Origin: Bdellovibrionales bacterium
Lineage (GTDB): Bacteria; Bdellovibrionota; Bdellovibrionia; Bdellovibrionales; UBA1609
Assembly: GCA_965226095.1 (NCBI GenBank)
Contig: OZ245336.1
Coordinates: forward strand, 1,481,308 to 1,545,307
Length of the DNA: 64,000 nt
Direction of reading: 5' to 3'
Shown here: positions 37,103-63,910 of the stretch, piece after piece
Layout: every line of letters starts with the position of its first letter
Position numbering within the stretch: the stretch's first letter is position 1
Notes under the pieces: generated by a model
Databases searched by the model: none
What the model saw: the letters and a program-made list of their open reading frames with translations, nothing else
What the model was told of the DNA's origin: nothing
Translations under genes and position numbers: made by a program

Positions 37103-37110
37103 GGATATTA

Positions 37111-39914: not shown

Positions 39915-40150
39915 TTACTATACCTAAATATAACTGTTCAAGCAATACATTAATGCTTACAGCAATATAATAAAAAAATTATCTTATCAAGTCTCCACCT
40001 TGGTCTTAAACTCTATATTTTATTCTTACATAATGCACAACTGCTGACACAAAAATCATTTCAGGTATAGGTCACCATTTTGACATAAGATAATTTATAC
40101 GAAATTCGGATCTCGTTCAGATTTCGCACAAACCAAAAATTACACAATCA

Positions 40151-40200
40151 AATAACACACCCAGCTGCCGGCAGGTAAGTAAACCTAGATATTTACTGCT
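40151..40200 (+). repeat. GC-rich palindromic module + (C)TAGATATTTAC module, overlapping the 3' end of the next gene
   Basis: aataacacacccagctgccggcaggtaagtaaacctagatatttactgct. The last 6 codons and the stop of ORF 40185..42197 are supplied by the repeat. Confidence 0.9.
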
Positions 40201-42197: not shown

Positions 42198-42237
42198 TTT
42201 AAGGTATCATATCGGATAATTTTGATAAAACTTGAAT

Positions 42238-42353
42238 TTCAGATATTTACAGTCATTCTTGTCACTGCCGTCATTCCGGCCTTGAGCCGGAATCCAGAAA
42301 ACAAATTGTCATTTCTACATCCACCGTCATTCCGGCCTTGATCCGGAATCCAG
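42238..42353 (+). repeat. TTCAGATATTTAC module + 2 hairpin units
   Basis: ttcagatatttacagtcattcttgtcactgcc, gtcattccggccttgagccggaatccag, and a second unit with one arm mismatch (ccttgatccgg). Confidence 0.95.
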
Positions 42354-42490
42354 TCAACTTCTCAATTTATTAATAGCTATTTTAAATCTTATTTGTTCTA
42401 AAATTACCATAGTCTAGTTTAAGCAGTGTTTTTATATATTATTTAGTATAAACCCTTAAGTTGATTTCAAAATAGCCGATAAATTCAATT

Positions 42491-43259
42491 ATGGAAGCAA
42501 CTAAAGAGATTCTTCTTGCTCATCATCGGAGCAAAAAGAGAATCCTTACTTTGGGGAAGTTTTCACCCCTGAGAAATATGTCAATCAAATGTTGGATATG
42601 TTGGACAAGTTGTTTGGATAGATACCAATACTGTTTTTTTTGAGCCAACATGTGGGCACGGAAATTTCGTTGAAGCTATTGTTGAAAGACGGATACACGC
42701 TTTCTTGAGAAAAGCAAAAAGACAAAAGATTAAAAATCCTCATTTCTATACTGTAGCAAATACTTTAAACAATCTATGGGCTATAGATATTGATTCAAAA
42801 AATATAGAGTTTTGCCGAAATAGAGTGAGAACTCTCATTTTCAATTTCCTATTTATCTTTTGAACATGAGAGAAATATTCTATCATCAGCAGATTTTATA
42901 AGAACTAATGAAGATTTTTTAACTCACGTTTTATGCTGTATTGAATGGCAGATACATGAAAACGAAACACTTTCATGTTTGGAGGCAAATGTTCTTAAAG
43001 CCAAAGAGATAGTAAATAGAACGACTGTCAGCAAAAAATGGTTAAAAAAAAATAAACATCGACCCTAAATTTTGAAATGAATTGGTGCCAGTATTTTAAA
43101 GGCTATAAAAGAGAAAACATTATTCCAGATGAATATACAAAGAATTTTAGAGTTATCAATTCATTAGTAAATAGCAAAAAAAAGTATCATAGAAAGAAAG
43201 AAATCTTAGAGACCTTTCCCATGCCAGACTTTAATATCGAAATACCAACAGTCGCTTAA
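42491..43259 (+). pseudogene. remnant of an N6-adenine DNA methyltransferase-like gene (multiple frameshifts/stops)
   Basis: No ORF of 60 aa or more covers 42491-43076. Across two frames one reads YFGEVFTPEKYVNQMLDMLDK and DTNTVFFEPTCGHGNFVEAIVER...LWAIDIDSKNIEFCRNRV, an AdoMet-binding motif I context. No NPPY motif was found, so the extent is uncertain. Confidence 0.45.
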
Positions 43260-43277
43260 AAAAATATAGGAGATTTT

Positions 43278-44718
43278 ATGTCAGCCCAATTAAAACTTAC
43301 TAATGTCAATACCCATGTTGTGGATATTTTGGGCAGTGTTAAAGGACGAGATCAGCCCGTGATGAAAATGGATAAGGCTGTAGAATTAGTCAAATGTTTA
43401 GATGAAGAGTTCTTTATAAATGATGATTATGTATTCTTTGATCCTTTTTTAAAGCTGGAGAAATTTTATTAGCCACAGCTCTTGTTTCAACACTTCATAA
43501 ATCCCAAAAGAAACTTGTGCTTTTGGATGTAGTTTATAACGAGATATATCAGAGTGATAGATACTTTGCTCTAGCTCCTGATGAAAGACACTACAATCTT
43601 AGTCTTAGAACCTTTTATGGAAATGAATAAATCTCATGATAAAAATTTTACTGAAAATATTAAAAATGGTGGCTATCTGTCAGAAATTGACGGACGGCTA
43701 AATAAAGAAAAATTTAACAAGGAGTTAAAAGCTATGCTGGAATATATCAAAGAAAAAACCAGAAATAAAAAAATTGTTGCTGTTGGAAACCCTCCTTACC
43801 AAGAAGAAGATGAAGGTCACGGAAAAAGTGCCAAACCTGTTTATAATATTTTTATTGAATCTCTAATTGATTCACAGGAAATTAGTAAGTTTTCTTTAGT
43901 TATCCCTGCTCGTTGGTTTTCTGGAGGTAAAGGGTTAGATAATTTTCGTAATAGAATGATAATAAATAAAAAACTTAAAAAAATAACTTACTTTGAAAAT
44001 TCTTCTTTTATTTTTCCAACTGTAGATATTAGAGGCGGAATATTGGGATAAATTTATAGGAGAAACTACTATTGATAACGGAAAAAAAACAAAGAAATGA
44101 TCTTTCTAAATGGGACATTTTGTCCCCCATGTTGAAGCACATTCAATACTTAATAAAGTATTGAATAGGAGTGATACATTTGTTTCTGAAGCAGTGTGGT
44201 CAAGAAAACCTTTTGGTTTGTCCGGCGATTATTTTTTAAAAAATAAAACAGATCACTCTAAATCAGATCAATTTGTTGAATGTTTAAGTGTAGGAAAACA
44301 AATTAATAAAATTCCTAAAGAACTAGTCCTAACAAATAAAAACAAAGTAAATGAGTATCAGATAGCTTTTCCAAGAGCTTCTGGTGGCGGTAAAGGTAGA
44401 AGAGATCAAATTCTCCTACGGCCAAAACATTTTTTTATTTTGGGAAAAGGACAAATCTCAACAGAAACATATAGTGTAGCTCATAGTTTTAAGGATAGAA
44501 AAGAAGCTGAAAACTTTTTATTATTTTTACAAACTTTTGCGAGATTTTTATTAGGACTCAGAAAACCAACACAAGATACGAAAAGAAATACTTTTGCATG
44601 GATTCCACTAATGGATGCTAAAAAGTCTTGGACAGATGAGGAATTGTTTAAACATTTTGGTATCAATAAAGAAGAGCAAAAATATATTATAGAACAAGTA
44701 GAGAAATGGACAGCTTAA
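43278..44718 (+). pseudogene. adenine-specific DNA methyltransferase (NPPY class), disrupted by several frameshifts and stops
   Basis: Good RBS (taggag) before the ATG at 43278. Three ORF pieces (43278-43472, 43581-44051, 44110-44718) plus an alternate-frame stretch (GEILLATALV...). Catalytic VGNPPYQ. C-terminal WTDEELFKHFGINKEEQKYIIEQVEKW is typical of these methylases. Confidence 0.7.
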
Positions 44719-44791
44719 CAAGTTTTTAATATTGAAAACTTGTTATAGCTTCAAAAGGAAAATTTTTGTGAAAAAAAGAATACGCCGGTCA

Positions 44792-45475
44792 ATGATACTT
44801 ACTCAAAAATTAGAAGGTATCTCAAAAAAAATATTTGAAAGATATAAAAAAAAAGTAATCCTATATATTGGAAATAAACCAGGAGTATATGCTCTTTATG
44901 ATGAAAAAGAGTTATACTATGTAGGTCGTGCCTCTGATTTGGCAAAAAGAGTTAATGATCATTTGAAGGATCGACATTCTGCACTTTGGACTCATTTTTC
45001 AGTTTATTTTACTAAAAAAGCACAATATGCAAATGATATAGAAGCTGTAATTATTTCTGTAGCACAACCTAAAGGAAATAAAGAAACACCCAAATTGGGA
45101 AAAGAAAAAAAACTTAAAGATATTCTTAGAAAAGCTATAAAAGAGAGTCACCAAGAAGAATTAAGAGAACTAGGGTTGAGTAGAAAAAAACAAGTTGATT
45201 TAAAGAAAAAGAGAAAAAGGAAAAATAGACCTGTCTTAAAAAATTATTTTAATAAAAACAAACCTTTAATGAAATCTTATAAAGGTAAAATCTATAAGGC
45301 TGTATTGCTGAAGTCAGGTAAAATTAAATATAATAAGAGAGAGTATGATACTCCCACTTCAGCTGCAGAAGCGATTGTAAAAATGCATTTACCAAATTCA
45401 GCTGTTAATGGTTGGTATTTTTGGTTTATTAAAGATTCTGAAAACAATTGGATTAAGTTAAACGAACTGGATTAA
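44792..45475 (+). CDS. GIY-YIG nuclease-domain protein with DUF4357-like C-terminal domain
   Basis: GVYALYDEKELYYVGRASDLAKRVNDH (GIY...YVG...R). C-terminal YDTPTSAAEAIVKMHLPNSAVNGWYFW resembles the SPSxAA...NGW motif of DUF4357. ATG at 44792; the ORF-track TTG is at 44732. Confidence 0.65.
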   Translation: MILTQKLEGISKKIFERYKKKVILYIGNKPGVYALYDEKELYYVGRASDLAKRVNDHLKDRHSALWTHFSVYFTKKAQYANDIEAVIISVAQPKGNKETPKLGKEKKLKDILRKAIKESHQEELRELGLSRKKQVDLKKKRKRKNRPVLKNYFNKNKPLMKSYKGKIYKAVLLKSGKIKYNKREYDTPTSAAEAIVKMHLPNSAVNGWYFWFIKDSENNWIKLNELD

Positions 45476-45489
45476 GAAAGGTAATTAAT

Positions 45490-47894
45490 ATGTCTGAAAA
45501 ATTAGAACTTTATGTTTATACTACAAACACTTGGCAAGAAAAAGGTTTGTTAAAGGTGGGACATTGTTTGAGAGGACGACATGAAGAGCGTATCAATGAA
45601 CAATTTAATGCCAGTAACCCTGATAAACCTAAAATTCTGTGGTTCGTAGAGTTGCCAGAGGGAAAAACAGATAAGCATATTCATCAACAATTAATAGATA
45701 ATGGGATTAAACATAAAGAAGATGGTGCAGGAACAGAATGGTTTTATGCAAATTTAGAGGATGTAAAAACCGCTTATAATCAAATGATTTGTGGGGTTAA
45801 ACGAACAGACCGTTTTCCTTTGAGAAGAGAACAGAAAGAAGCTGTAGATAAAGCTGTTAAATGGTTTAACAAAGACTATTCTTATAAGACAATAGATTCA
45901 GCTACTCATAAAAACAGGTTTTTATTAAATGCTAAAATGAGATTTGGAAAATGTTTTACTGGTATCCATATTGCAAAAGCTATTGAGGCAAAAAAGACCA
46001 TTATTGTTACCTATAAACCAAGAGTTATTGAGGAGTGGATGAATGCTGTCAATAACCATGTAGATTTCAAAGATTGGACAGGAATCAGAGCAAAACAAGG
46101 AGAAAATAGAAATGAACTTTTTCTTAATGAAATAGGTGATTTTCCTGAACATTCAGATTCTTTAGTCTTATGTGTGTCTTTACAGGATTTGGATATTGAT
46201 GATCAGGGAAATGTAAAAGGCCGGCTCAAAAAAGTTTTAGAAACAAAATGGGACTTACTTATTTTTGATGAAGTGCATTTTGGAGGAAGAACGAATAGAT
46301 TTAAGAATATTTTAAAATACTTAGATCCACAATTTCGCCTTGAGCTTTCTGGAACTCCTTTTCGTCTCATTGGAACAGTAGATTTTTGCCCTGAACAGGT
46401 TTTTACCTACAGTTATCTTGATGAACAGAAAAATAAGAAACAAGAGATTCAAAGTGACCCAGAACAAAAACAACTTTTTATTTATAGACAAATGCCAAAT
46501 TTGAATCTTTCTACTATAGAAATTACAGATAAAGATATAAAACATCAAAAAGAAAAATTTATGACAGATGACAGGGACTTTTCTTTAAATGAATTATTTA
46601 AAGCAACTAATTCAGGTTTTATTCATAATGATGCTGTAGATCACTTTTTAGAAAGTCTGTCAAAAAGAGATTATGGGGCTACTGCTTTGAGTGTTTATGG
46701 AAAATTAGGAGAACAGTTAGGTCTTTCAAACAAAAGACATAGTATTTGGTGGTTAAAGTGTTCAGTCTATTAAGCAACTTATAAAAAAGTCTAAAACATC
46801 ATCCTATTTTTTCTCAATATGAAATTATCAATGCGGCTGGTGGAAAAGCTGGTGATGATTTATCTGATGACGATTTATCTGATGAAATTTTTGCAAAAAA
46901 CAAAAAAGATATAATAAACACAATTGAAAAGGTTAATACCAATGAAATTAACAAGATTGGCACAATAACACTTACTTGTAGGAAATTTTTAACAGGTGTT
47001 ACTATTAAACAATGGGATTCCATGTTGATATTAAATGATATTCAATCGGCAGAAAGTTATTTTCAAGCTATTTTTCGGATTCAATCAGCTTGGTTTGATA
47101 GAGAATATAATAAAGTGTTAAAGCCTGTGGGATATGTTTTTGATTTTGCTATTTCTCGTTGTTTACGAACTACTTATAGTTATGCAAATGCTTTGGCTGA
47201 TCAGTTAGATCAACAGGACAGTTCTAAATATCAAGCTTGTAGGAATAGTAATTTAGTGAAGGTAATTGACGGTTTCTGTGACACTTTGAACATCAAACAA
47301 TTTTATGAGGGAAGTTTAAAGAGTGATCCTGTAACTTCTCGGCAAATATTTGAAGCAATAGCCAGTGAAGGTTCTGTAGTTGCTTTAGCCAAAAGAATTA
47401 CCAGTGATGTTTTGGTGTCCTTTCCTTCTCTATCTCTTTTGGAGAGTTATCCACACTTGTTTGAAGCATTAAAAAATGTGAAAGGTTACAGAAGTCAGCA
47501 AGCTGGTAGCCTTGAGGATTTTATTCGAATAGGAGATGAAGCTAAAAGAAAAAAGTTAGAAAAAGATAAATTAGAACCTAATGATGAAAAAACTGCAAAA
47601 GATAATGAAGATTTTGTAGAAAAAGATAAAGATAAAGATAAGAAAAATAAAAAGAAATGGTATGCGACACAAATTAAAAGATTGGCCATTTGTATGGCTG
47701 ATTTTATTTATATGACTTATAAAAGAGAATATAAAATTGATGAAGTTATCGAAACAAAGTATCCAAAATTTTTTAAAACTGTTACAGGTATCAGTAAAGA
47801 TGATTTTTGTGAACTTTGTGAAAAAGGGTTTATACATAAGAGTCACTCAATCGTATTGTTAGAGAGTTTGCCTTCCGAGAAGAAAGCTCTGTAA
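45490..47894 (+). pseudogene. T5orf172/GIY-YIG-like N-terminal domain + DEAD/DEAH-type helicase, interrupted
   Basis: N-terminus LYVYTT...GLLKVGH...GTEWFYANLEDV. Walker A-like AKMRFGKC and DEVH box (LLIFDEVHFGG). Frame 1 stops at 46773. The homologous text continues in frame 3, which has its own TAA at 46782-46784 and is open from 46785 (HHPIFSQYEIINAAGG...QAIFRIQSAW) to 47894. Confidence 0.65.
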
Positions 47895-47982
47895 AACCAG
47901 AAGAATATATTTTTGAGCATATACAACAAATTACGGATAAAAAATCCGCTTAAAATCTTAAAATTATTTAGTTTTTTTAAAT

Positions 47983-48018
47983 GACTGGATTCTTGCTTTC
48001 GCAGAGGTAGGAATCCAG
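47983..48018 (-). repeat. degenerate hairpin repeat unit (reverse orientation)
   Basis: gactggattcttgctttcgcagaggtaggaatccag, with CTGGATTC...GAATCCAG arms. Confidence 0.7.
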
Positions 48019-48045
48019 AAAACTAAAACCTATTATTTATATGTT

Positions 48046-49251
48046 CTATTTTCGTAAGTAATAACTCCACTTCCCTCTGACTTTATTATGTTTAGAAAAT
48101 ATAAATTGATTGTGATTAGCACACAACAGTCTTAAGTTATCAGGCTCACTTGTGCCACCTAACGAAAAAGGTTTAATGTGATCTATTTGCAACAAGTGAT
48201 TGGATGAACATCTTCTTTTTGTCTTTGGACAAATATAAGTACACTGCCCCTGATCTCTCATCCACACATGATGTCTCACTACTGAAGGAATATATCTTGT
48301 GTATTTTGAATGTTTTTTTGTTGTTTGTTCTAAAGAAGCTTTTTTGAATGTGCTTTTACTTTGTTTATTTAATTTTCGTTTAGGATCATATTTGTCTAAA
48401 CCCAGTTCTGCTAGTAGTGTGAATAACTCTCCATAGGACATATTGGGATTTTTATGTGATAAGAGCTTTTTTAAATCTTCCAGGTTTTGCTGACAATTTT
48501 TGTCCAAAATTACTTTTATCTCTACTTTATCATTATTTATATCTCTAACTTTTTCTTTTGAAATGGGAATTTCAGGATCTATCTCAAAAAGTGTCTTTTC
48601 CAACTCACGACTGGACTGACCTTCCGCTTTTTGTATTAAATCCAGTTTTTGAGTAGAATTTAACTCCAAAGTGGTTTTATTTTTTTGCTTATCCTCTAAT
48701 TTGTTCTCTTCTTTTTTGCCTTCATCCGCATTGTTATTAACGCACCCAGCTGCCGGCAGGTAAGTAGACTTAGAATCACACCCCTTTAAATTGCTTTCTT
48801 TAAGTGTTTTATCCTTCCTTCTCTTTTTCTCAAAAAAAGTTTGTAATTGAGAAGCTGTAGTTAAGTTTAAACTTCCACTTTTTATCTTTGGTGTGGCTTG
48901 TGGGATATCACGGCATAATCTCATAGCTTTAATTCTCCTATAAGCAGCACTGTGACTATAATCCAATTCCTTAATGGCATATTCAAATAGGCTAGGAAAA
49001 CCTCTTTTAAGATAGAGCTTTCTACTTTCTATTTCCTGTAAGTGTTGCAGCACTTGGATATTGATTTGTCTTTCTTTTTGAACCAGATTTTTTTGTGAAA
49101 GCAATTGGTCATTGCTGAGTTTTTTTAAATTTGTATTTATTTTTATTTCTGTACTTGTATTGACTGGATTCCTGTCCCTGTTTTCACAGGGATAAACTTT
49201 TTTTTCGCAGGAATGACGACGTATATTTTGTTTTTCCTGTTGTATGTACAT
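48046..49251 (-). CDS. HNH endonuclease (DUF222-like N-terminal region) carrying repeat-element insertions
   Basis: C-terminal HNH motif: QCTYICPKTKRRCSSNHLLQIDHIKPFSLGGTSEPDNLRLLCANHNQF. N-terminal LQEIESRKLYLKRGFPSLFEYAIKELDYSHSAAYRRIKAMRL. Codons 10-32 and the STYLPAAGCV segment are encoded by repeat modules. Confidence 0.75.
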   Translation of the reverse strand: MYIQQEKQNIRRHSCEKKVYPCENRDRNPVNTSTEIKINTNLKKLSNDQLLSQKNLVQKERQINIQVLQHLQEIESRKLYLKRGFPSLFEYAIKELDYSHSAAYRRIKAMRLCRDIPQATPKIKSGSLNLTTASQLQTFFEKKRRKDKTLKESNLKGCDSKSTYLPAAGCVNNNADEGKKEENKLEDKQKNKTTLELNSTQKLDLIQKAEGQSSRELEKTLFEIDPEIPISKEKVRDINNDKVEIKVILDKNCQQNLEDLKKLLSHKNPNMSYGELFTLLAELGLDKYDPKRKLNKQSKSTFKKASLEQTTKKHSKYTRYIPSVVRHHVWMRDQGQCTYICPKTKRRCSSNHLLQIDHIKPFSLGGTSEPDNLRLLCANHNQFIFSKHNKVRGKWSYYLRK

Positions 49252-49450
49252 AAAAAATACCTCCTATGTTGTTACTGTTACCTTTATAAGGGAAAAACAA
49301 TATAACATGGGTTTTTAAAAGAGATTTTTATAAGGGTGGAGCTTAGTTATAGCTTCAAGCTTTAAGGCACCTGATAGCTTCATAAATAGGTTGTTTTACT
49401 CTTAAGCTTTAAAAAACATTTAGATGATAGAAAAAAAGCAACCACGATGA

Positions 49451-49515
49451 AATATAAGCATCAAAAATCCTGTCAAGATTTTTTACAATAAGAACAGTGT
49501 GTAAATTAAATATAC
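49451..49515 (+). promoter_or_regulatory. conserved ~65-bp upstream element with near-palindrome AAAAATCCTGTCAAGATTTTT (copy A)
   Basis: aatataagcatcaaaaatcctgtcaagattttttacaataagaacagtgtgtaaattaaatata. A second copy is found at 50207-50271. Lies about 110 bp upstream of ORF 49623. Confidence 0.5.
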
Positions 49516-49622
49516 TAATTTTAATTTTTTTCATACATTAGTCTAAATTTTTACACATTTTTTCAGAGTTTTTTTAATATAACCCTTTAGATTGAAACTA
49601 AGTAGGCCGATAAAGTTATGTC

Positions 49623-50189
49623 ATGGAGGCAATCGAGAATATTCTGCAATTTATATATTATCGGAGTAAAAAAGAATCCGAAGTTTTAAAGCAGTTTTCA
49701 TTTTTGAAAAATATGTTAGAAATAATAAAAATAATTTTAATATCAATATTACTTGTATTTAGCTTTAATAGCTACTCACTGTTAGCTTTAGATTGTAAAG
49801 ATTTAAAAGGATTAAGTCTTAGAAATGAAAAATTTTCGAAGGACAGCTTTTCTAAGGCTCGTCTACTTATTACATTTTTTAGTAATAACAATAGTATGTT
49901 CTATAATTGGAATCAAAATACAGGAACTTTTGTTGATATGTGGAATAGCATTAAAGGATTTGAAGAATTAAAAGTTGTGCAAAGTAACTCTAATATGGCT
50001 TTAGGGTATTCAGTTAAAAATGGTTTAGAAGGTATAAGGATTCATTTTAAAAAGAAAACAGCTGTATATGCTAAACATGTAGCACCTCTTATTGATGGCT
50101 TTGGGACAGACGGTATTTATAAAATGAAGTGTATTGATGTAACACAAGAGTTACAACAGGTTACAAAAAGTAGCAATAAGGAAAATTAA
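49623..50189 (+). CDS. hypothetical secreted/membrane protein
   Basis: 188 aa. Internal Met followed by a hydrophobic segment (MLEIIKIILISILLVFSFNSYS), so the real start may be downstream. No recognisable domain. Confidence 0.35.
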   Translation: MEAIENILQFIYYRSKKESEVLKQFSFLKNMLEIIKIILISILLVFSFNSYSLLALDCKDLKGLSLRNEKFSKDSFSKARLLITFFSNNNSMFYNWNQNTGTFVDMWNSIKGFEELKVVQSNSNMALGYSVKNGLEGIRIHFKKKTAVYAKHVAPLIDGFGTDGIYKMKCIDVTQELQQVTKSSNKEN

Positions 50190-55799: not shown

Positions 55800-56339
55800 T
55801 TATACTCTTTCTGGCCTTCTATCATCTGGTCTTCTATCATTTGGTCTTCTATCATCTGGTCTTCTATCATCTGGTCTTCTATCAAATGAGGAGCCCATTT
55901 TTTTTCTCTGCTGAAGACGGGTTAACCTCTCTTTCTCTTTTTTAAGAGAGTTCTCTACACTTTGTCTAAACTGCTCTAAATGCTCTTTTAATGAACGCCG
56001 AGGATGCAGTTTTTCAAAATGATGATAAATGCTTTGATCCTGCATTTTTATAATTCTTGTTAACTCAGTCACTACACCAGCATCACCGTTAAAGGAAAAA
56101 TGAAAATAGAGACCTTGTGAATAACCTTTTGTATTATGATTAGCTAATTTTCTTAAGCCCCAAGTGTCTACATGATGAACACTCCCTTTAAACTGTACGA
56201 TAATTTCCTTAATTTTTTGAAAAAAACCATTTTGTTGTTCCTGACTCATATCAGGAGCCATAACTAAGATAGATTCATAAGCAGGAATCGAGTCAATTTT
56301 GTTCACTTTTTTTATCCTTTCGTCAAATTTTTTTAACAC
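55800..56339 (-). CDS. rpsF: 30S ribosomal protein S6 with N-terminal extension and C-terminal (RRPDD)5 repeat tail
   Basis: Core YESILVMAPDMSQEQ...VHHVDTWGLRKLA matches S6. The tail is FDRRPDDRRPDDRRPNDRRPDDRRPERV. Confidence 0.85.
   Translation of the reverse strand: MLKKFDERIKKVNKIDSIPAYESILVMAPDMSQEQQNGFFQKIKEIIVQFKGSVHHVDTWGLRKLANHNTKGYSQGLYFHFSFNGDAGVVTELTRIIKMQDQSIYHHFEKLHPRRSLKEHLEQFRQSVENSLKKEKERLTRLQQRKKMGSSFDRRPDDRRPDDRRPNDRRPDDRRPERV
55813..55887 (-). repeat. 15-bp tandem repeat x5 encoding RRPDD units in the rpsF tail
   Basis: Plus-strand units gg(c/t)cttctatca(t/a)(c/t/a)t repeat head-to-tail five times. Confidence 0.9.
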
Positions 56340-56401: not shown

Positions 56402-57094
56402 ATGAAGATTCAGTTTATCAATGGTCCCAACCAGGGAAAGCAATTTAAAGTCCAAGCCGGCCTGATTTTAAGCCGGAAAAAACTAAAAAAAGGGGATATT
56501 GCTGTTCTAGATCCTAAAGCTTCTTCCCCTCATGCAGAAATTATAAAAAAAAGAAAATCTTTTTATTTAAAAGATCTAGATTCTAAAAACGGTACCTGTG
56601 TCGATGAAGAGGTTAACGACCTGTTTACACTCAAACCCGGTACGACATTTTTTATTGGAGAGACCGGCTTTCAAGTGATGGATTCCCCTCCTCCCAAGCC
56701 AAAACAAGTTATAAAAAAGACATGGCAGGAAACCATTACAGAGGAATTAAACAAACACTTAAAACAAATCAAAGATCCACCTGCACAAGAGATGTTACCC
56801 ATCTATCCCACACTAAAGCTCACATTTAAATCCGGATCCCAAAAAGGGGATGTATGGCATGTGTATTACGGTCCACGACAAAGTGGAAGCGCCAGTGTAG
56901 ATCTACCTATTTTGGATCCTTCAGTTCCCGGGATATGCTTTTCTCTTCATCCTGTCAGCGGAGGAGGAGTCTTGTTTAAAACCACTTTCCCGGACAAGGT
57001 GCTTTTGAATAAAAAGCACCAGAATAGAAAGAATTTAAAAGATGGTGATCTTATTTCTGTCGCTGATACTTTGATTGAAGTTAGTTTTCTTTAG
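56402..57094 (+). CDS. FHA-domain protein (N-terminal FHA plus a second FHA-like module)
   Basis: 230 aa. First module: ILSRKK...DPKASSPHAEI...LKDLDSKNGTCVDEE...GETGFQV. Second module: SASVDLPILDPSVPGICFSL...DGDLISVADTLIEV. Confidence 0.75.
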   Translation: MKIQFINGPNQGKQFKVQAGLILSRKKLKKGDIAVLDPKASSPHAEIIKKRKSFYLKDLDSKNGTCVDEEVNDLFTLKPGTTFFIGETGFQVMDSPPPKPKQVIKKTWQETITEELNKHLKQIKDPPAQEMLPIYPTLKLTFKSGSQKGDVWHVYYGPRQSGSASVDLPILDPSVPGICFSLHPVSGGGVLFKTTFPDKVLLNKKHQNRKNLKDGDLISVADTLIEVSFL

Positions 57095-58305
57095 CAGTCT
57101 GGATATTCACAGTGATCAAAGTCACAGTTGTTATAATCCATATGGCAACTGCCGCCTGTAGTACCTGTTGTAGTAGTACCTGTCGTTGCACCTGTTGTTG
57201 CACCTGTTGTTGCACCTGTCGTAGTGCTTGCACTTAAGCCTAAATTTAAATTACCATCGTTCCAATTGTCCTTTAACTTATCACAAGCGGCATCAGACCA
57301 TTCATCTGCATCTCTTCTCTCAAGATCTAAACCACCCTCATCAATAGGAGCTTTAATAAAATCATCTACTTCACTATCATTTAGAATGTGTGCCACATTT
57401 TCCCTTAGATCTTCAGGGTCAAATTCATCAACATCCACAAGGCTGGCAACATGGCAATAAACACCTAGAATACAAGCCTGTAAATTAAATTCCTTTTCTG
57501 CCTCTGCTGTGTTTGCGTAAGTACTTGACGCCTTAGGACGATTGGATTCTTTACACACTTTTTTCATTAAAATTAATTCATGAACAAATTGAAAAGCCTC
57601 AGAATTACTTGAACCATCATTTTCTGAAAGATAAAGAAGAGCCGGAAGCTCTTCATCGTCATCATCCATAGATACATCCCTTTTAAAACCTTCGAGAAGA
57701 TTTTCTGATGTGACATCATCATTACCCCCTAAAGAAGAAAAAAGCTGCTCCATAAATTCTTTTTGAGGCTTATCTGCTATGAAGTAAGAACTGATATCCT
57801 CATCCACCACCCACGTAAAAGCAATTTCTGCTCTACTACTGCTATAGTCTTCAATTTTTTCCACTAATGGATCAGGACCTATTTTCAACAAGATACATAA
57901 CAACTGTGTATCCGCATCAGGTAAATCATCTTCATTGGGCCGATCAAAAACATCTTCCACCATTTCCTCTATATCAAAAATGATCTCTGGTTCATATTTC
58001 AAACAATTTTTACGGGCATCCCCATTGAATAACCTGCCACAAACTTGTTTACATGTTCTACCATCCTTATTCTCACCTTGATAATATTCACAATAACTGG
58101 TATTTTTATTACATTGATCATCTTCACACTTATCAACCTTATCAGATGAACATTTAGCACGACGATTGTGCATGATTGGTTCACCATCTGTGCCTCCATC
58201 GCCTGTCGGCCTTATAGTTTGTAATCCACTGTCCTCACAACTGGATACAGTAAATAGAATAGGCACCATCAATACAGTAGATATAATAATAATAATAAAT
58301 TTCAT
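57091..58305 (-). CDS. Cys-rich putative lipoprotein, paralogous family member 1 of 6
   Basis: 404 aa. Signal peptide with lipobox-like FTVSSC. Family motifs C-x3-C-x3-F (CKQVCGRLF), LCILL, AEIAFTWVV, FQFVHELI, ACILGVYC, DFIKAPIDEGGL, DAACDKLKDNW...LNLGL. Unique (GATT)n plus Cys-rich tail. Confidence 0.7.
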   Translation of the reverse strand: MKFIIIIISTVLMVPILFTVSSCEDSGLQTIRPTGDGGTDGEPIMHNRRAKCSSDKVDKCEDDQCNKNTSYCEYYQGENKDGRTCKQVCGRLFNGDARKNCLKYEPEIIFDIEEMVEDVFDRPNEDDLPDADTQLLCILLKIGPDPLVEKIEDYSSSRAEIAFTWVVDEDISSYFIADKPQKEFMEQLFSSLGGNDDVTSENLLEGFKRDVSMDDDDEELPALLYLSENDGSSNSEAFQFVHELILMKKVCKESNRPKASSTYANTAEAEKEFNLQACILGVYCHVASLVDVDEFDPEDLRENVAHILNDSEVDDFIKAPIDEGGLDLERRDADEWSDAACDKLKDNWNDGNLNLGLSASTTTGATTGATTGATTGTTTTGTTGGSCHMDYNNCDFDHCEYPDC

Positions 58306-58327
58306 TCCTCACTCCGAAGTATTGATT

Positions 58328-58384
58328 GGCGATCTTATTTCAATTGCTGATACCTTGATTGAGGTCAGTTTTTCAACAAAGTAG
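58328..58384 (+). pseudogene. relic copy of the 3' end of the FHA gene (56402..57094)
   Basis: ggcgatcttatttcaattgctgataccttgattgaggtcagtttt aligns with ggtgatcttatttctgtcgctgatactttgattgaagttagtttt at 57044-57088. Translation is GDLISIADTLIEVSF vs GDLISVADTLIEVSF. There is no upstream coding part. Confidence 0.8.
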
Positions 58385-58401
58385 TAATTTATCTACAAGA
58401 C

Positions 58402-59550
58402 TTAACTTCCTAAGCCCAGATCCAAGTCACTATTGTCGTTCCAGTAGTTCTTTAACTCCTCACAAGCAGCATCAGTCCAATCATCTGCGTCATCATCATC
58501 ATCATCGAGCCCCAAACCACCTTCTTCAACAGGAGCCTCAATAAAATCAGTCACTTCACCATCATTTAGAATGTGTGCGACATTCTCTCTTAGATCATCT
58601 CCATCTTCATGCTCTCTTGCATCTACACCTGCAACATGACAATACACCCCTAAAATACAAGCCTGTAAATTAAACGCATCTTCTGCTTTTTTTACTGTAA
58701 TTTTAGACTCGGCTTCACCATCTTTTCCATACTTACAACTACTAGTAGTACAACTGGTATTAGCCGCATTTGCAATGGGACGATTGGAATTTTTACACAC
58801 CTTATCCACTAAAATCAGTTCATGAACAAATTGAAAAGCTTCGGAATTTTTAGAGCCATCATTTTCTGACAGATAGAAAAGAGCAGGTAGTTGTTCATCA
58901 TCATCCTCATCCACTTCCACATCACTCATAAAACCATCTAAAATATGATCAGGCGTCACTTTGTCTTCTCCACCTAAAGAGGAAAAAAGTTGTTTCATGA
59001 AATCCTGTTGATGATCATTTTCCGTAAAATAAGAGCTGATATTTTCATCCACCACCCACCTGAAAACAACTTCCGCTCGACCACTACTGTAGTCCTCAAT
59101 CTCTTCCACCCAAGGATCAGGATTTATTTTTAACAACATACAAAGTGTTTGTTTATCCACTTCGTCTTCCAGTTTGTCTTCCGTCGGCCGTTCAAGCAGA
59201 TCAACCAACTCTTTCACATCAAAAATAATCTCCGGTTTATACTCTAAGCATGTGTCGCGAGCATCTCCAGTAAATAAATCTTTGCACACCTCACTACAGG
59301 TATCATTATCTTCATTTTCACCGGTATAGTATCCACAATAACTGGTATTGTTATTGCATTCCTTATCTTTACATTTATCACTTGCATTGGATGTACATTC
59401 ACTTCGACGAGTCTGCATGATTGGTTCACTACCATCCGTGCCTCCATCGTCTCTTCCAGGTTGTAGTTCATTGTCTTCACAACTGGACACAGTAAATAAA
59501 ATAGGCACCATCAACACAATAGATACCATAATAATAAAAAGAGATTTCAT
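58402..59550 (-). CDS. Cys-rich putative lipoprotein, paralogous family member 2 of 6
   Basis: 382 aa. N-terminus is nearly identical to member 1 (MVPILFTVSSCED). Same motif set (CSEVCKDLF, LCMLL, FQFVHELI, ACILGVYC, AACEELKNYW...LDLGLG). Confidence 0.7.
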   Translation of the reverse strand: MKSLFIIMVSIVLMVPILFTVSSCEDNELQPGRDDGGTDGSEPIMQTRRSECTSNASDKCKDKECNNNTSYCGYYTGENEDNDTCSEVCKDLFTGDARDTCLEYKPEIIFDVKELVDLLERPTEDKLEDEVDKQTLCMLLKINPDPWVEEIEDYSSGRAEVVFRWVVDENISSYFTENDHQQDFMKQLFSSLGGEDKVTPDHILDGFMSDVEVDEDDDEQLPALFYLSENDGSKNSEAFQFVHELILVDKVCKNSNRPIANAANTSCTTSSCKYGKDGEAESKITVKKAEDAFNLQACILGVYCHVAGVDAREHEDGDDLRENVAHILNDGEVTDFIEAPVEEGGLGLDDDDDDADDWTDAACEELKNYWNDNSDLDLGLGS

Positions 59551-59663
59551 GTGGATCCTCCTGTTTGCACTACAAATTTTATTGTACCAAGTTTTTATCT
59601 AAATCCAAATAATAAAAAACCACTTCTCTGCCAAATTTACAATAAAAAACCAGCCTTTTGTCC

Positions 59664-60752
59664 TCAACGAGAGCAAGGGAGCCTTTTATTCTCTGGAAGA
59701 TCTTCAGCGGTTCCTAAATCAAAATTCAAAGCTTTGTTATGCCAAAAATTCTTCAGTTCTGAACAAGCGGCACTGGGCCATTCTTCCGCTTCTTGAGTCA
59801 CACCTAATCCCCCACTAATAACAGAAGTTGCAATAAAATCAGTCACTTCATTATCTTTGACTAAATTCTTCGCCACTACTCTTCTCTCCGCTTTACTATT
59901 GTTATCAGGACCAGCCAAACAATAAAGAGCTAAAATACAAGCTTGTTTCTTGTAAGCCAAGGCGGCTTTATGCTGATACCCACTGTTGGAATTATTGTAA
60001 TAACAGTTATTTCCACTTCTGGTACCCGTTGAATTGGGATGAGGTTGATTATTTTCTGTATCACAAATATCCCCTACAATAAGCTCATTATGTATTAAGT
60101 CAAAATTCACTTTTCCATTTTGTCCGGCATAATCAGCAATGTAAAAAATAGTTTTTCTACCTTCTATTGTTTGTCTAGTAAGGCCATTAAGAGCATTTTC
60201 ATCTGTCACTTGTCCTCTCCTGCCAGCACGAGCCGCTAATAAACTTTTTACGATATTCAAACGATCTTCTGTATCTGAAAACAAATGTAAAATCCCCTTG
60301 GAAAACATCCAATTGATAACAACCTCTGCATTACCGGATGTGTATCCCTCATTAATTTCTGTCAACCATGTATCCGACGACAGTTGTAATAAAGCACATA
60401 AATCTTCTGTTTTAATATTGAACAAATCAGAAGAGTTGGGCTTGAAATATAGAGTATCTCTTAGTGCCTCTAACTGCTCAACCAATTCCTTGTCGTATTT
60501 AATACAAATATCATAACTGCTTCCTTCGTCAAAAAGTTCTGTGCAAGTATCTTTACAACTGTTGTCTTCATGACAACAGTCATCTCCGGAACACTTTCGA
60601 TGTTCCTGACAAGTCTCTACCCTTATTTCTTCATTGTTTCTTTGTGAAGGGAGTGGATTAAATTGATCCCCTGGATCCTCATCGCAGCCTGATGTTACAG
60701 AAATAATAAAAAAAATAAAAAATAAGAAGGTAATATTTTGCCTTACATGCAC
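59664..60752 (-). CDS. Cys-rich putative lipoprotein, paralogous family member 3 of 6
   Basis: 362 aa. Signal peptide ends SVTSGC. Motifs CKDTCTELF, LCALL, AEVVINWMF, FDLIHNELI, ACILALYC, TDFIATSVISGGLGV, SAACSELKNFW...FDLG. Confidence 0.7.
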   Translation of the reverse strand: MHVRQNITFLFFIFFIISVTSGCDEDPGDQFNPLPSQRNNEEIRVETCQEHRKCSGDDCCHEDNSCKDTCTELFDEGSSYDICIKYDKELVEQLEALRDTLYFKPNSSDLFNIKTEDLCALLQLSSDTWLTEINEGYTSGNAEVVINWMFSKGILHLFSDTEDRLNIVKSLLAARAGRRGQVTDENALNGLTRQTIEGRKTIFYIADYAGQNGKVNFDLIHNELIVGDICDTENNQPHPNSTGTRSGNNCYYNNSNSGYQHKAALAYKKQACILALYCLAGPDNNSKAERRVVAKNLVKDNEVTDFIATSVISGGLGVTQEAEEWPSAACSELKNFWHNKALNFDLGTAEDLPENKRLPCSR

Positions 60753-60755
60753 CTT

Positions 60756-61847
60756 CTAATTAGCTCCCAAATCTAAATTTAAATCGCCATTTTTCCAATA
60801 TTGTCGAAGCTTCAAACAAGATTCGTTAGGCCATTCTGAAGCATCTTCATCGACACCCAAACCACCATCCACAATAGGAGTTGCAATAAACTCCTTAACC
60901 TGTGTACCGATCAACCTCGCTACTCTTTTTCTATCTGATTCATACTGATTATCTGTATAAGGCCCTGCTTTACAATACACAGCCAAAATACAAGCTTCCT
61001 CGGCAAATTTTTTAGCCGCTCCTACTGAATAACCTGTGTATTTTGTTGTATTGGGAGCCGGCTGGTTAGCTTCCTTACAAAGTTTTTCTACAACAATCTC
61101 TTCATGCACAAAATAAAAACCTGTGTTGTTCTGTTTAGCCTCCCGCTCTGCCAGATAAAAAATAGTTTTTTCATCAGCCACTTTTTGATCAGTTAAGCCA
61201 TTTAATAAATGAGTATCACTAACCTCTACCTTGGCACCTGCTCCACCTAATTTACCAATTAATTGTTCCAACAGGTCCAATAAATAATCTTTTTTATCTT
61301 CATCTTTGATTTTTGATAAACTCTCATCCCCAGCAGAAAGAAAATAATACCAAATATTTTTAGACACCAGCCATTCTAAAGTTATACGAGCATAGTTACT
61401 ACTATAATAATCCTTAACTTTATTAATCCATGTTTTAGGTGATAACTCCAACAGAGCACATAGAGGCTCAGGTTCTTTCAAATCCTCATCATCATACAAT
61501 TTATCCACACTTGGACGATCGAAAATATTATTTACAATATTTTCTATTTTGTTAACCATCTCACGGTTATATTTTTTACACTCACTTCTAATGCCGCTAG
61601 AAAACAAATCGTCACATTTATCAGCACAATCTTCATACTGCCCACAACAGTCGTCACTCCCGGAACAGTCTCCATCACTGTCTCTACAAACCACTTGTAC
61701 AGAATTATTAACACTCCCATCTCTTCCAAAATCTGCACCATCCTGACCATCAGTACGACCATTAACGCCAGTTGTATCATCACCACAACTAAATATTATG
61801 GAAGACATTAAAAGAATCGATGTAACAAAAATAATAAAAGCTCTCAT
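60756..61847 (-). CDS. Cys-rich putative lipoprotein, paralogous family member 4 of 6
   Basis: 363 aa. Signal peptide ends SIIFSC. Motifs CADKCDDLF, LCALL, ARITLEWLV, FYFVHEEIV, ACILAVYC, EFIATPIVDGGLGV, ESCLKLRQYW...LDLG. 3-bp gap to member 3. Confidence 0.7.
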   Translation of the reverse strand: MRAFIIFVTSILLMSSIIFSCGDDTTGVNGRTDGQDGADFGRDGSVNNSVQVVCRDSDGDCSGSDDCCGQYEDCADKCDDLFSSGIRSECKKYNREMVNKIENIVNNIFDRPSVDKLYDDEDLKEPEPLCALLELSPKTWINKVKDYYSSNYARITLEWLVSKNIWYYFLSAGDESLSKIKDEDKKDYLLDLLEQLIGKLGGAGAKVEVSDTHLLNGLTDQKVADEKTIFYLAEREAKQNNTGFYFVHEEIVVEKLCKEANQPAPNTTKYTGYSVGAAKKFAEEACILAVYCKAGPYTDNQYESDRKRVARLIGTQVKEFIATPIVDGGLGVDEDASEWPNESCLKLRQYWKNGDLNLDLGAN

Positions 61848-61931
61848 TATAGGTACCCCCTACTGGTTATAATTTACTAAAACTCTCTTTTGACGACCAG
61901 CTTATTTGTAAATTGCCGCTATACAATAATT

Positions 61932-62963
61932 TTATTCTCTTCTTTCACATAAACTGATATTAATACAAGTACTCTTACACACATCAGAAGTAATTTCAAA
62001 ATTCTTATTAAACATATCATCTACAATCGATCCATCCCTATGTAATTTATTCCAGTTATTCCAAACATTGGGACCATGAATATAACAATATCCAACATTA
62101 CTGAAAATAACACGAGAACTTCTATAGTAAGCACAGTGATTACGATGAGAGGGAGAACGCTCATTTTTTATACTCATACAATAATGTTGCAGTTTACATC
62201 CAGTACTTGAACAAAACTCACCTATTAAATCATGAATCAAAGCAAAAGCTGGATCATTTTTTACAACGTCCGCTAATACTAAAAAAGTTTCTCCAAAGCC
62301 TCTTAAATCCGCCGCCAAGCCATATTTTACAACATCTGCCACCGCAGGGTAGGACACTACCTTCCCAAAAACCTGAGTAAGAATATTATATTCAGTGTCA
62401 TGTTCTCTAATACCCGCAGCCGCATCTGGACTTTGTGCCAGCCAAATTAAAAATTCTTTAGCGTGTCTACTATTCCATTGGCGAATAAGACGTAACATTG
62501 GTTCTATAGAAATATCAATCATCACACCAAATGAATATTCATCCACTTGACTATGTAAAGAATTCTCTCCCTCTTTTATTTGTTGTGGACTTTCCAGGTG
62601 TTCAACCAGCTTCTCCAGCTCCTGAATTAAATCCACAGGTAAAACTTCACATTTATCGGCATCCCGTCCATACACCTTATTACATTTTTCCTGACATTCT
62701 TCCCGTTCATGATCTTCTGTATCATTACAAAGCTCGCCTTCATAATCACTTCTAATGTAACGACCAGCCTGAAAACGACCTTCGTTATTTGTAGGAACAA
62801 CTCTACCCGTTTCATCAGGACGAAAACGATTGTTGTTCGAATTTCTTATGCCATTTTCACACCCACAAAAAAATAATGTAATAAAAATACATGCTTTACC
62901 AAAAAACCTAGTTAAACAATTTATACTGTATCTTTTTTTAGAAAAAATATAAAGCCTGTGCAT
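61932..62963 (-). CDS. Cys-rich putative (lipo)protein, divergent family member 5 of 6
   Basis: 343 aa. Hydrophobic N-terminus ending FFCGC. Retains CQEKCNKVY, AKEFLIWLA, FALIHDLI and CKLQHYC, but has a different Cys-rich C-terminus. Confidence 0.6.
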   Translation of the reverse strand: MHRLYIFSKKRYSINCLTRFFGKACIFITLFFCGCENGIRNSNNNRFRPDETGRVVPTNNEGRFQAGRYIRSDYEGELCNDTEDHEREECQEKCNKVYGRDADKCEVLPVDLIQELEKLVEHLESPQQIKEGENSLHSQVDEYSFGVMIDISIEPMLRLIRQWNSRHAKEFLIWLAQSPDAAAGIREHDTEYNILTQVFGKVVSYPAVADVVKYGLAADLRGFGETFLVLADVVKNDPAFALIHDLIGEFCSSTGCKLQHYCMSIKNERSPSHRNHCAYYRSSRVIFSNVGYCYIHGPNVWNNWNKLHRDGSIVDDMFNKNFEITSDVCKSTCINISLCERRE

Positions 62964-63910
62964 TATTCACATCCTTTATTACTGTCATCGCAAGCGTATC
63001 CACAAACATTATTATTCAAAGTTGGCTCGATATAAACATACCTTCCACCTTTATAAAATTCATCAGCAATATACTCAAACAGCTCTTTATCATCAATTCG
63101 CTTAGCTATTTCTTCACGTAATGATTCTGTGTGAATATATTCACCATTACTATTAATTCTCTCCCGACAATAAATCCGCAATATACAAAGCTCTATATGG
63201 TTACTTCCTGAGTATTCAAACCTACACAGATCATTGCGAATCATCTCATGAGTCATTTGTAGCATTTCATCATTTCTATTGGACACTAGATGTTGAAAAA
63301 AAGTGTCATTAAAAGAGATCTTCTGAGATAAGCCTTCTTCAACGGCTCCATGTCTTGGCTTGGTTTTATCTCCAGCAGAAGCTAGTAGTTCGTAGATAAT
63401 TTCATTTCTGGCAGGCATACTTAATCGATTTAATTCCTTAATCACATTTAAATCCTGCGCCAACCAAACTAAAACCTGCCTGGCATCATCGATTTTGTAA
63501 CCTTTAATGATCCGAACCCATGCTTCATAATCCAAAGCTAAAAGCAAACGAAACTCTTCCCTGGTATCTATATAAACAAAATCCCTGGCCTTAGGATTTC
63601 TTAATAACCTCACAATATCTTCCAAATCCAACACAATTTGACGGTTTAAAGATTTACATTTTCTTTTAACCTCACTCACGATTTCAGATCGAGAAAGATA
63701 AAAAATATTATCGCAAACACGTTCACAATCACGATATTTGGAACAACAGTTATCACCATTACAGGAAAAAGTTGAAATATTTCTATTATTTTCTATTGCT
63801 TCAGCAACTTCTCCGGCACTCATATCTCCTTTGCATTGAATAAGAAAGGGGGATAAAAATATAATGACAGTGTTTTTCAATGAAATACCATGACGTGGAA
63901 ATTTATACAT
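62963..63910 (-). CDS. Cys-rich putative (lipo)protein, divergent family member 6 of 6
   Basis: 315 aa. N-terminus ...IIFLSPFLIQC. Retains CERVCDNIF, ARQVLVWLA, LQMTHEMI, LCILRIYC, FEYIADEFYKGG. C-terminal CGYACDDSNKGCE. 1-nt overlap with member 5. Confidence 0.6.
   Translation of the reverse strand: MYKFPRHGISLKNTVIIFLSPFLIQCKGDMSAGEVAEAIENNRNISTFSCNGDNCCSKYRDCERVCDNIFYLSRSEIVSEVKRKCKSLNRQIVLDLEDIVRLLRNPKARDFVYIDTREEFRLLLALDYEAWVRIIKGYKIDDARQVLVWLAQDLNVIKELNRLSMPARNEIIYELLASAGDKTKPRHGAVEEGLSQKISFNDTFFQHLVSNRNDEMLQMTHEMIRNDLCRFEYSGSNHIELCILRIYCRERINSNGEYIHTESLREEIAKRIDDKELFEYIADEFYKGGRYVYIEPTLNNNVCGYACDDSNKGCE

Follow-up and report, generated by a model that had tools for sequence, protein, structure and literature searches.

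A tandem array of predicted cysteine-rich lipoproteins, made up of three subfamilies, in a bacterium labelled Bdellovibrionales

Close to one end of a 64,000-nucleotide (nt) stretch of DNA from a bacterium labelled Bdellovibrionales (positions 1,481,308 to 1,545,307 of contig OZ245336.1, assembly GCA_965226095.1; this whole stretch is referred to here as the window), six genes lie in tandem on one strand, each encoding a cysteine-rich protein with a signal-like N-terminus that ends in Cys. We number them m1-m6 from the end at position 57091, m6 being the first transcribed. Comparison with related sequences indicates that these genes form a conserved operon in which three old subfamilies are represented, A (m6), B (m5) and C (m4-m1), and very probably it specifies a family of extracytoplasmic, disulfide-bonded lipoproteins with an A-B core. 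To judge from database searches and structural models, the family, its predicted fold and its A-B-C(n) organisation are all without precedent in the curated libraries and in the PDB.

The similarity among the six proteins is far beyond what chance would produce, and points to their common ancestry. A profile built from them matched 610 of 1.84 billion cluster representatives at E <= 1e-3 (377 of these reached E <= 1e-10, and 66 reached E <= 1e-30), and when the profiles of types A and C were compared by hhalign, they aligned over 241 columns with a probability of 99.7% (E = 5e-26); searches based on a word index returned only 7-8 close orthologues. A reading of the window made from its sequence only, before this analysis, had listed four motifs common to the six proteins, and each of these does occur once, in the same order, in 6/6 proteins, an arrangement seen in 0/20000 shuffles of m4 (the C-x-L-x2-Y-C motif of m5, CKLQHYC, is misaligned by MAFFT). 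That reading had also confined a C-terminal (D/E)FI...GGLG...W...C block to m1-m4, which is correct (in m4 it takes the form FI..GGLG..EW..C..L+.YW); m6 has a conserved end of its own, ...GCE. The lengths and spacing that it gave for six same-strand open reading frames (ORFs) agree with the ORF list, as do the N-terminal ends VSSC, VSSC, TSGC, IFSC, FCGC and LIQC, and its expectation that the genes would be conserved in related genomes is borne out by syntenic orthologues on two metagenome contigs (L006, 1.70 Mb, and L007, 0.79 Mb; L-numbers denote the loci compared). Because such orthologues exist, and because the ratios of nonsynonymous to synonymous divergence (dN/dS) lie between 0.085 and 0.35, the six genes can be taken on sequence grounds to be real.

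The 164 family proteins that were classified comprise 18 of type A, 59 of type B and 87 of type C. In 10 of 11 loci (all but L011) A is followed directly by B, down to identities of 26-46%; all loci with an A gene also have a B gene; and in four of them (the window, L006, L007 and L010) the A and B reading frames overlap by 1-4 nt. The gene order is A-B-C4 in the window and in L010, A-B-C3 in L006 and L008, A-B-C in L015, A-B-C... as far as the contig end in L013, and A-B in L012 and L014; in L007 it is A-B-C1 with two frameshifted C genes, and in L004 A-B-C2, an inserted AAA_14/DUF4143 gene (6100-7269), and then C2. The only deviating order is that of L011, C-B-C-A. Thus, only type C varies in number, with 0-4 copies across the loci. 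The frameshifted genes of L007 (11080-13490) are m3-like and m2-like, split by frameshifts (frames 3-1-3 and 3-1), and may be either pseudogenes or long-read assembly errors. In L006, L007, L004 and L008 the orthologue of m6 is always the first gene (blastp identities of 90%, 69%, 46% and 41%; 92% to the L006 orthologue in the comparison made for dN/dS), and the counterpart of m5 always the second (76%, 63%, 35% and 34%). The m4-m1 group is only 25-35% identical to the type C copies of distant genomes. Nearer relatives allow individual correspondences to be drawn: m4 has orthologues (P0002-P0007) that are 47-72% identical, m3 is 78% identical to L006_g4, and m2 is 71% identical to L006_g5, the last L006 gene, with a synonymous divergence (dS) of 0.48, so that m2-m6 each have a one-to-one orthologue in L006; m1 has none there. 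As m1 and m2, which are ~60-66% identical, have a dS of 1.1, against a species-level dS of ~0.45, their split predates the split from the nearest relative. It had been supposed from the window alone that the graded divergence of the six members came from repeated tandem duplication followed by diversification; this does not survive the finding that A and B are old subfamilies, fixed in their order in 10/11 loci. Long near-identical repeats, inverted switches and silent cassettes were looked for, and none was seen.

The subfamilies also differ in their rates of change. Pairwise, gene-wide dN/dS values against L006 were 0.085 for m6 (A), 0.31 for m5 (B), and 0.33, 0.18, 0.32 and 0.35 for m4, m3, m2 and m1, compared with 0.064, 0.10, 0.13, 0.155 and 0.26 for the flanking genes that encode an FHA-domain protein, FtsK, DnaB and the ribosomal proteins S6 and L9. 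The nonsynonymous divergence (dN) of B and C is 3-4-fold higher than that of A. The most constrained gene of the array is therefore m6, on a par with the housekeeping genes for FtsK and DnaB, and the earlier impression that nothing beyond the family core is left in members 5 and 6 has to be abandoned, m6 being the best conserved of all.

Evidence for export and lipidation comes from the N-termini. A lipoprotein is expected to have a positively charged n-region, a hydrophobic h-region and a lipobox [LVI][ASTVI][GAS]C within the first ~40 residues. A strict lipobox (of the PROSITE PS51257 type) is present in m1-m5, and among relatives it is strict in 97/156 and loose in 23/156 (120/156 together), most of the non-matching proteins being fragments or having near-lipoboxes such as LNSC or FLYC; the signal-ending Cys itself is found in 96% of near-full-length family members. 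At positions -3/-2/-1 type C has [VIL][FS][SG] and type B [LFI][LVAF][GSA], both canonical. The -1 position of type A is Q in 6/14 (including m6, LIQC) and A/S/G in another 6/14. The sequences of B and C thus have what is expected of bacterial lipoproteins, and those of type A are uncertain in this respect: the lipidation of m6 is less certain because of its Q at -1, and the parity of its cysteines does not separate lipidation from cleavage by signal peptidase I, since a cut after the Cys also leaves an even count. To this extent the original description of all six as lipoproteins needs qualification: it is well supported for m1-m5, both by the strict lipobox and by the conservation of the Cys, and less secure for the atypical m6. 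Proteins of types B and C are very acidic; isoelectric points are 4.1-4.9 for m1-m4, 6.0 for m5 and 5.7 for m6. The signal region of m4 is followed by a Gly/Asp-rich linker of ~25-35 residues, of which residues 26-47 are disordered in the AlphaFold2 (AF2) model. We also considered whether acidic residues that come behind the lipid Cys act in sorting, and set this aside as a family trait: the feature is strong in the type C proteins of the window, and the enrichment is mild family-wide (acidic residues at +4 with a frequency of 0.38, against a background of 0.20).

The numbers and the covariation of the remaining cysteines are consistent with extensive disulfide bonding, as the sequence-only reading had suggested from the Cys skeleton. 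After the lipobox Cys, the proteins m1-m6 contain 16, 14, 14, 12, 12 and 12 cysteines, all even numbers, and the mature count is even in 115/120 relatives. Moreover, certain Cys columns are gained and lost in pairs (in m4 numbering, C54-C130 with phi 0.96, C61-C67 with 0.86, and C292-C344 with 0.70), so that C54-C130 and C61-C67 are well supported as candidate disulfide pairs, and C292-C344 more weakly. C68, C74, C78 and C90 (again in m4 numbering) show no variation, and conservation is 96-97% at C257 and C286. Since parity and covariation fit 6-8 structural disulfides per protein, an extracytoplasmic location is indicated.

Models and searches gave a coherent picture of a helical domain without recognised relatives. 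The AF2 model of m4, from a 68-sequence alignment, has 19 helices and almost no strand (predicted local distance difference test score, pLDDT, 87.7; predicted template-modelling score, pTM, 0.82), and that of m6, from a 66-sequence alignment, is likewise all-alpha (pLDDT 90.3, pTM 0.86). Taking E <= 0.001 or a template-modelling (TM) score >= 0.5 as a match in Foldseek searches (and a new fold as one that is new relative to the PDB), no match was found for m4 in the PDB (best E = 1.5, TM <= 0.25) or in BFVD (best E = 0.6), or for m6 in the PDB (best E = 0.25, TM 0.16); the top 50 PDB entries for both were all eukaryotic helical-repeat or membrane proteins (TM <= 0.25), the weak leading ones being generic helical-repeat proteins. 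Nor did the six proteins give any above-threshold match in Pfam-A 2025, NCBIfam 20.0 or PADLOC 2.0, and Pfam gave no match and no informative fused domain in 68 diverse and 10 unusually long relatives; the best score over all these proteins (E = 0.056) was to an unrelated kinase model. Profile searches of PDB sequences with three alignments returned only noise (best E = 0.004, over 87 residues of an unrelated archaeal plasmid protein). The family had been described at the outset as unrecognised, and profile searches, AlphaFold modelling and Foldseek had been proposed as checks; with these carried out and no known family or PDB fold matched, that description stands. Besides Cys, the only residues that are near-invariant family-wide are a W, an H and a Y, the His being H248 of m4 and H221 of m6. 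In the type A alignment (A4), W149, N213 and H221 are invariant together with the Cys skeleton, and the additional conserved polar residues of this type are N213, H221, R245, Y247, Y258 and H260.

The features of the locus are collected in Table 1. The gaps between successive genes, from m1 to m6, are 96, 113, 3, 84 and -1 nt; m3 starts 3 nt past the m4 stop, and the start of m5 overlaps the m6 stop by 1 nt. No intrinsic terminators were found between the genes of the array, the only terminator-like site being inside m1, and shuffled sequences gave more; indeed, scans for promoters and terminators gave counts at or below shuffle expectation. The absence of intergenic terminators fits a single transcript. 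Rfam had no match within the window. The window ends 90 nt upstream of m6, and since the two syntenic relatives (L006 and L007) have a gene for an Asp/Glu racemase, and no further family member, upstream of type A, the six members are probably the whole array. Five of the six proteins (m2-m6) are present in a 15-billion-protein collection, all on one 1.55-Mb contig; an exact m1 is absent from it. Alone among the six, m1 has a C-terminal Thr/Gly-rich linker, followed by a His-containing 4-Cys tail, CHMDYNNCDFDHCEYPDC (57091-57230). On the other side of m1 lies a convergent gene for an FHA-domain protein, with a 4-nt overlap at the m1 stop, as had been noted earlier and as the coordinates confirm.

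Table 1. Genes and repeat of the array and its boundary (positions are those of the window)
Feature	Position	Strand	Description
FHA-domain gene	56402-57094	+	Boundary gene outside the family; 230 amino acids, cytoplasmic; Pfam FHA 1.5e-10, Yop-YscD_cpl 1.9e-10
m1	57091-58305	-	Type C; 404 amino acids; lipobox VSSC; 16 further Cys
12-nt tandem repeat, 4.7 copies	57169-57224	-	Inside m1 (Tandem Repeats Finder); codes for a (T-T-G-A)n linker
m2	58402-59550	-	Type C; 382 amino acids; lipobox VSSC; 14 further Cys; poly-Asp stretches
m3	59664-60752	-	Type C; 362 amino acids; GTG start; lipobox TSGC; 14 further Cys
m4	60756-61847	-	Type C; 363 amino acids; lipobox IFSC; disordered Gly/Asp linker; predicted 12-Cys all-alpha domain
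m5	61932-62963	-	Type B, second gene; 343 amino acids; canonical lipobox FCGC; 12 further Cys
m6	62963-63910	-	Type A, first gene; 315 amino acids; atypical LIQC; 12 further Cys

In the lineage of the window, the array is located between the Asp/Glu racemase and FHA genes and adjoins rpsF-rplI-dnaB-ftsK; genes for a tRNA synthetase and for heme A synthase are also in the neighbourhood, the latter (COX15-CtaA) lying, in L006 and L007, at a distance of 3-5 kb upstream of the family genes. The FHA gene has the same position in L006 and L007. A functional link between it and the array was considered and rejected, as its product is cytoplasmic, the gene is convergent, and the two are adjacent only in the window's own lineage. 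Elsewhere the surroundings are different, and no neighbours are conserved across lineages. The array is divergent from genes for a secretin and GspE in L008 (4147-6664), and from a GspE(MshEN)-GspF-GspG-pseudopilins-GspJ cluster in L010 (1-7405); in L011 (1-3431), a T2SSF gene, next to DUF192 and two FHA-domain genes, is ~1.2 kb away, and it and the FHA genes are all contained in the ~4.6 kb upstream of the family's first gene. L004 and L008 have the same downstream genes, so some of these adjacencies are to be regarded as one inherited position. The link to the type II secretion system (T2SS) is therefore a lead and not a rule, with adjacency in two or three lineages. The neighbours in L012, L014 and L015 are unrelated to these (a lyase; ProS with COX4_pro/UbiA; and RibD with FKBP). 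In L014 (10001-13403), where only A and B are present, COX4_pro and a UbiA (heme O synthase-like) gene come 27 nt after the pair, and in L015 (9309-9833) a gene for a periplasmic-type FKBP precedes A; the proximity of these genes, and of heme A synthase in L006 and L007, may be coincidence. In ~12 loci there were no toxin, hydrolase, effector or polymorphic-toxin genes adjoining the array. Mobile genes border or break up some of the arrays: a gene for a DDE transposase adjoins a lone C-type gene in L003 (7992-10999), a Transposase_31 gene comes after the A-B pair of L012 (14147-15298), and the AAA_14/DUF4143 gene of L004 belongs here too.

What might such an array do? Our tentative preference is for a membrane-tethered module of the envelope or cell surface, in which A and B form the core and the C proteins are peripheral binding units, with a binding role and possibly with export by the T2SS. 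Each product would be exported by Sec and would then receive its lipid on the conserved Cys with which the signal closes (B and C having a canonical lipobox, and the A of the window an atypical one), would be oxidized in the periplasm to give 6-8 disulfides, and would be tethered to a membrane by its disordered Gly/Asp/Thr-rich linker. A and B, because they are adjacent in 10/11 loci and have overlapping reading frames in four, may be an obligate conserved core, probably a heterodimer, and the faster-evolving, copy-variable C paralogues would serve as binding modules at the periphery, located at the outer membrane or on the cell surface. No catalytic signature is conserved family-wide, and the role would most likely be non-enzymatic, in the binding or recognition of structures of the envelope or of the surfaces of foreign cells (prey or host), and surface export by a T2SS is possible. 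The analysis shows the genes and their homology, the signal and lipobox pattern, the parity and covariation of the cysteines, the order of the subfamilies, purifying selection and the lack of a match to any known family or fold; lipidation, disulfide bonds, an A-B complex, location and binding function are all things that we infer. Taken by itself, a surface or recognition role is doubtful, and the boldest version of the proposal, in which A-B-C(n) would be a hetero-oligomeric, T2SS-exported surface apparatus of a new kind, made throughout of a single new disulfide-stapled helical fold, with which small-genome Bdellovibrionales-like bacteria would recognise and hold prey or host, with A-B as its anchor and C setting the target range, seems to us distinctly unlikely.

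Several observations weigh against our preferred interpretation. All six members are under purifying selection at gene level, and the housekeeping-level constraint on A, together with its housekeeping neighbours, fits a housekeeping role in the envelope equally well. The Q at -1 of m6 could mean cleavage by signal peptidase I and a soluble product instead, and the extra polar residues of type A might be those of an active site. The gsp secretion genes are not adjacent in the window or in L006, L007, L012, L014 or L015, and no homologue of characterised function was found from which location or binding could be deduced. Some of these points lead directly to the main rival explanation, which is that A-B and C make up a periplasmic housekeeping module, either an envelope-biogenesis or a structural factor on the periplasmic face of a membrane (such as a scaffold or chaperone for the assembly of the outer membrane, of peptidoglycan or of respiratory complexes), with no role in cell contact. 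The dN/dS of type A, so like those of FtsK and DnaB, would be natural for such a factor, as would the position of the array among rpsF-rplI-dnaB-ftsK, tRNA synthetase and heme A synthase genes, the succession of A-B and COX4_pro/UbiA in L014, the FKBP gene before A in L015, the equality of array and genome G+C content (GC), and the presence of B wherever A is present. Under the +2 rule of E. coli, m1-m4, which have acidic residues at positions +2 to +4 counted from the lipid Cys, would be retained in the inner membrane. Yet 6-8 disulfides in a helical domain of ~300 residues would be unusual for a core biogenesis factor, as would the very acidic low-complexity linkers, a C copy number of 0-4 and the 3-4-fold higher dN of B and C; envelope biogenesis factors are usually widespread, whereas this family is found in one uncultured lineage; and its neighbours are not conserved across lineages. 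We therefore regard a purely housekeeping role as rather unlikely, though it is the most serious competitor of a binding module built on A-B.

The conserved polar residues raise the question of whether the family might instead consist of extracytoplasmic enzymes of a new sort, hydrolases or transferases whose substrate would be lipid, peptidoglycan or polysaccharide and which would use the His with a Tyr, Asn or Arg; A would then be the active archetype, and B and C isozymes or inactive partners, and a very distant relationship of the Lipocone kind would fall under this heading. The near-invariant His, with the W and Y, and the further polar residues of type A speak for it, and secreted or lipobox-linked helical enzyme domains, some of them concentrated in Bdellovibrionota, have been described in the Lipocone preprint (bioRxiv 10.1101/2025.01.14.632903). 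It is made quite improbable by the lack of any acidic or nucleophile residue conserved in all three subfamilies, by the replacement of R245 of type A by Ala in type C, by the failure of Foldseek to match any PDB entry at E <= 0.001 (Wnt, SAA and TelC were not among the top 50), by the absence of matches to Pfam enzyme families in the 68 + 10 members, and by an hhalign probability of 0.2% against human SAA. The tandem layout, the differing C copy number, the two frameshifted C copies in L007, the 12-nt repeat in m1 and the faster evolution of B and C than of A might have suggested a diversifying set of antigens or adhesins, interchangeable at the surface and produced by recent and repeated duplication, of the kind seen in the variable lipoproteins of spirochaetes and mycoplasmas. 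This is very unlikely, and for A and B, which are single-copy, ancient and fixed in position, it is largely refuted; m2-m6 have one-to-one orthologues in L006, m1 and m2 separated before the species did by the measure of their dS, dN/dS is 0.18-0.35 gene-wide for the B and C genes (not >1), and neither switches nor silent cassettes were seen. The adhesin and effector roles floated in the sequence-only reading are in any case inference. The same reading had mentioned an immunity repertoire, in which lipoproteins would neutralise the lytic enzymes of the cell itself or of competitors, one paralogue per effector. Bdellovibrio protects itself with a helical-repeat protein, Bd3460, and lipoproteins are also found among lysozyme inhibitors, MliC for example; with these precedents as analogies, multiple paralogues with an extracytoplasmic location and a helical, binding-type fold could be seen in such a light. 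The genomic context gives this no support (toxin-like or hydrolase neighbours are absent in ~12 loci, and PADLOC is empty), and fixed A-B pairing and housekeeping-level constraint on A misfit a set engaged in an arms race, so that we think an immunity function highly improbable.

If our preferred reading, a tethered A-B module with peripheral C units, is right, ~0.4% of a ~1.5-Mb genome is spent on one unannotated family with a fold unmatched in the PDB. The distribution of the family looks restricted to one small-genome lineage, uncultured and akin to bacteria that carry the label Bdellovibrionales. All of the relatives examined come from metagenome assemblies, mostly on contigs of 1.3-2.3 Mb, and many of the ENA/Logan members examined are on contigs of 1.3-1.9 Mb with 36-41% GC. 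A scan of a genome collection found only two named genomes with the family, the assemblies 'MAG: Bdellovibrionales bacterium' (L003 and L004, of 2.08 and 2.31 Mb); it used a 13-sequence alignment with a single type C pattern, and thus sampled named genomes poorly, and a match to Lawsonibacter in the same scan was spurious, the family hidden Markov model not confirming it. A comparative-genomics paper on cultured Bdellovibrionota mentions no cysteine-rich, lipoprotein or tandem family. The window has a GC content of 30-42% in 2-kb windows, mostly 32-39%, and codes for Omp85, GlmS/GlmU, sigma-54 activators, several FHA proteins and an ExbB/ExbD/TPR cluster, from which it follows that the organism has two membranes. 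With >= 610 sequence clusters, strictly organised as an A-B core and variable C, the family offers a handle on the envelope, and possibly on the cell contacts, of a lineage not yet grown; it also provides a candidate new disulfide-rich helical fold for structural biology, and we suggest a Pfam-type family definition with three subfamilies. In kind it is already familiar, being a lineage-specific multigene family of exported disulfide-bonded lipoproteins, of which there are many in metagenomes; taken alone it discloses no new mechanism, and its importance is accordingly moderate.

Some other features of the window deserve to be recorded. A second set of paralogues, on the minus strand at 34320-38699, comprises four ORFs (34320-34988, 35178-35846, 37180-37836 and 38025-38699) of ~220 amino acids that are 57-73% identical and have signal-peptide-like N-termini (MKHLILLSCF.VSVSYAG); it is interrupted by an AAA_14/DUF4143 gene on the plus strand (35954-37102). 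An island of low GC (0.30, against ~0.35-0.39 elsewhere) at ~40000-50000 contains genes for DUF2779 (40185-42197), a T5orf172+ResIII helicase (45490-46773) and an HNH endonuclease (48046-49251), and looks like a mobile or defence island. At 278-10300, on the minus strand, genes for two ExbD proteins, an ExbB/MotA-type protein, a 779-amino-acid FHA protein and TPR proteins of 292, 1096 and 510 amino acids form a cluster that resembles a proton-motor module of the Tol/Agl type; in all, the window has at least four FHA-domain genes. Finally, ribosomal protein S6 (55800-56339, minus strand) has a C-terminal tail of five (D/N)DRRP repeats.

How does the family compare with better known exported proteins? 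Among the adhesion and variant-surface proteins of eukaryotic parasites, in PfEMP1 DBL domains and in the trypanosome VSGs, disulfide-stapled helical domains of ~300 residues belong to expanded gene families and are exposed to a hostile exterior. The resemblance is an analogy only, as these are from another domain of life, with no detectable homology, and evidence of switching or positive selection was not found here. The Helicobacter cysteine-rich proteins (Hcp, Sel1-like) are also exported, all-helical paralogues with helices stapled by disulfides. They differ in that the Cys spacing of our family is not periodic, and in that it has a lipobox and a long tether; Pfam detects no Sel1 (PF08238) or TPR repeats in 78 members, and Foldseek finds no Sel1-like repeat structure. 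The Lipocone superfamily (Min-Wnt, prok-SAA, CapCone and TelC) consists of helical domains on unstructured linkers, some of them concentrated in Bdellovibrionota (bioRxiv 10.1101/2025.01.14.632903), and the joining of a helical domain to a signal peptide or a lipobox through an unstructured linker is indeed common to both; but the domain of our family has ~300 residues and 17-19 predicted helices, against a five-helix cone, and has no conserved catalytic polar set. Membership of Lipocone was considered and rejected, with no PDB match in Foldseek at E <= 0.001 and 0.2% by hhalign against SAA, the only one of the Lipocone profiles that was compared.

Closer in general design are two kinds of bacterial lipoprotein. 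Those of spirochaetes (Borrelia OspC/Vsp, Mlp and CRASP) are likewise multi-copy, tethered and mostly helical, and are used at the cell surface, but they are not disulfide-rich, are largely plasmid-borne and are hypervariable. The array described here is chromosomal, lies among housekeeping genes, is under purifying selection and has three fixed subfamilies, and no homology to the spirochaete proteins was found. The other kind comprises surface lipoproteins that depend on a T2SS, of which Klebsiella pullulanase, PulA, is the type (SslE and MtrC/OmcA are further examples), and whose gene, pulA, is divergent from pulC-O. There is no similarity to PulA in sequence or fold, our family is without an enzyme or cytochrome domain, and its adjacency to gsp genes is not general. 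What the two would have in common is a Sec signal with a lipobox, and folding and oxidation in the periplasm before export, as predicted for the family; and in L008 and L010 the array is divergent from gsp genes, just as pulA is from pulC-O.

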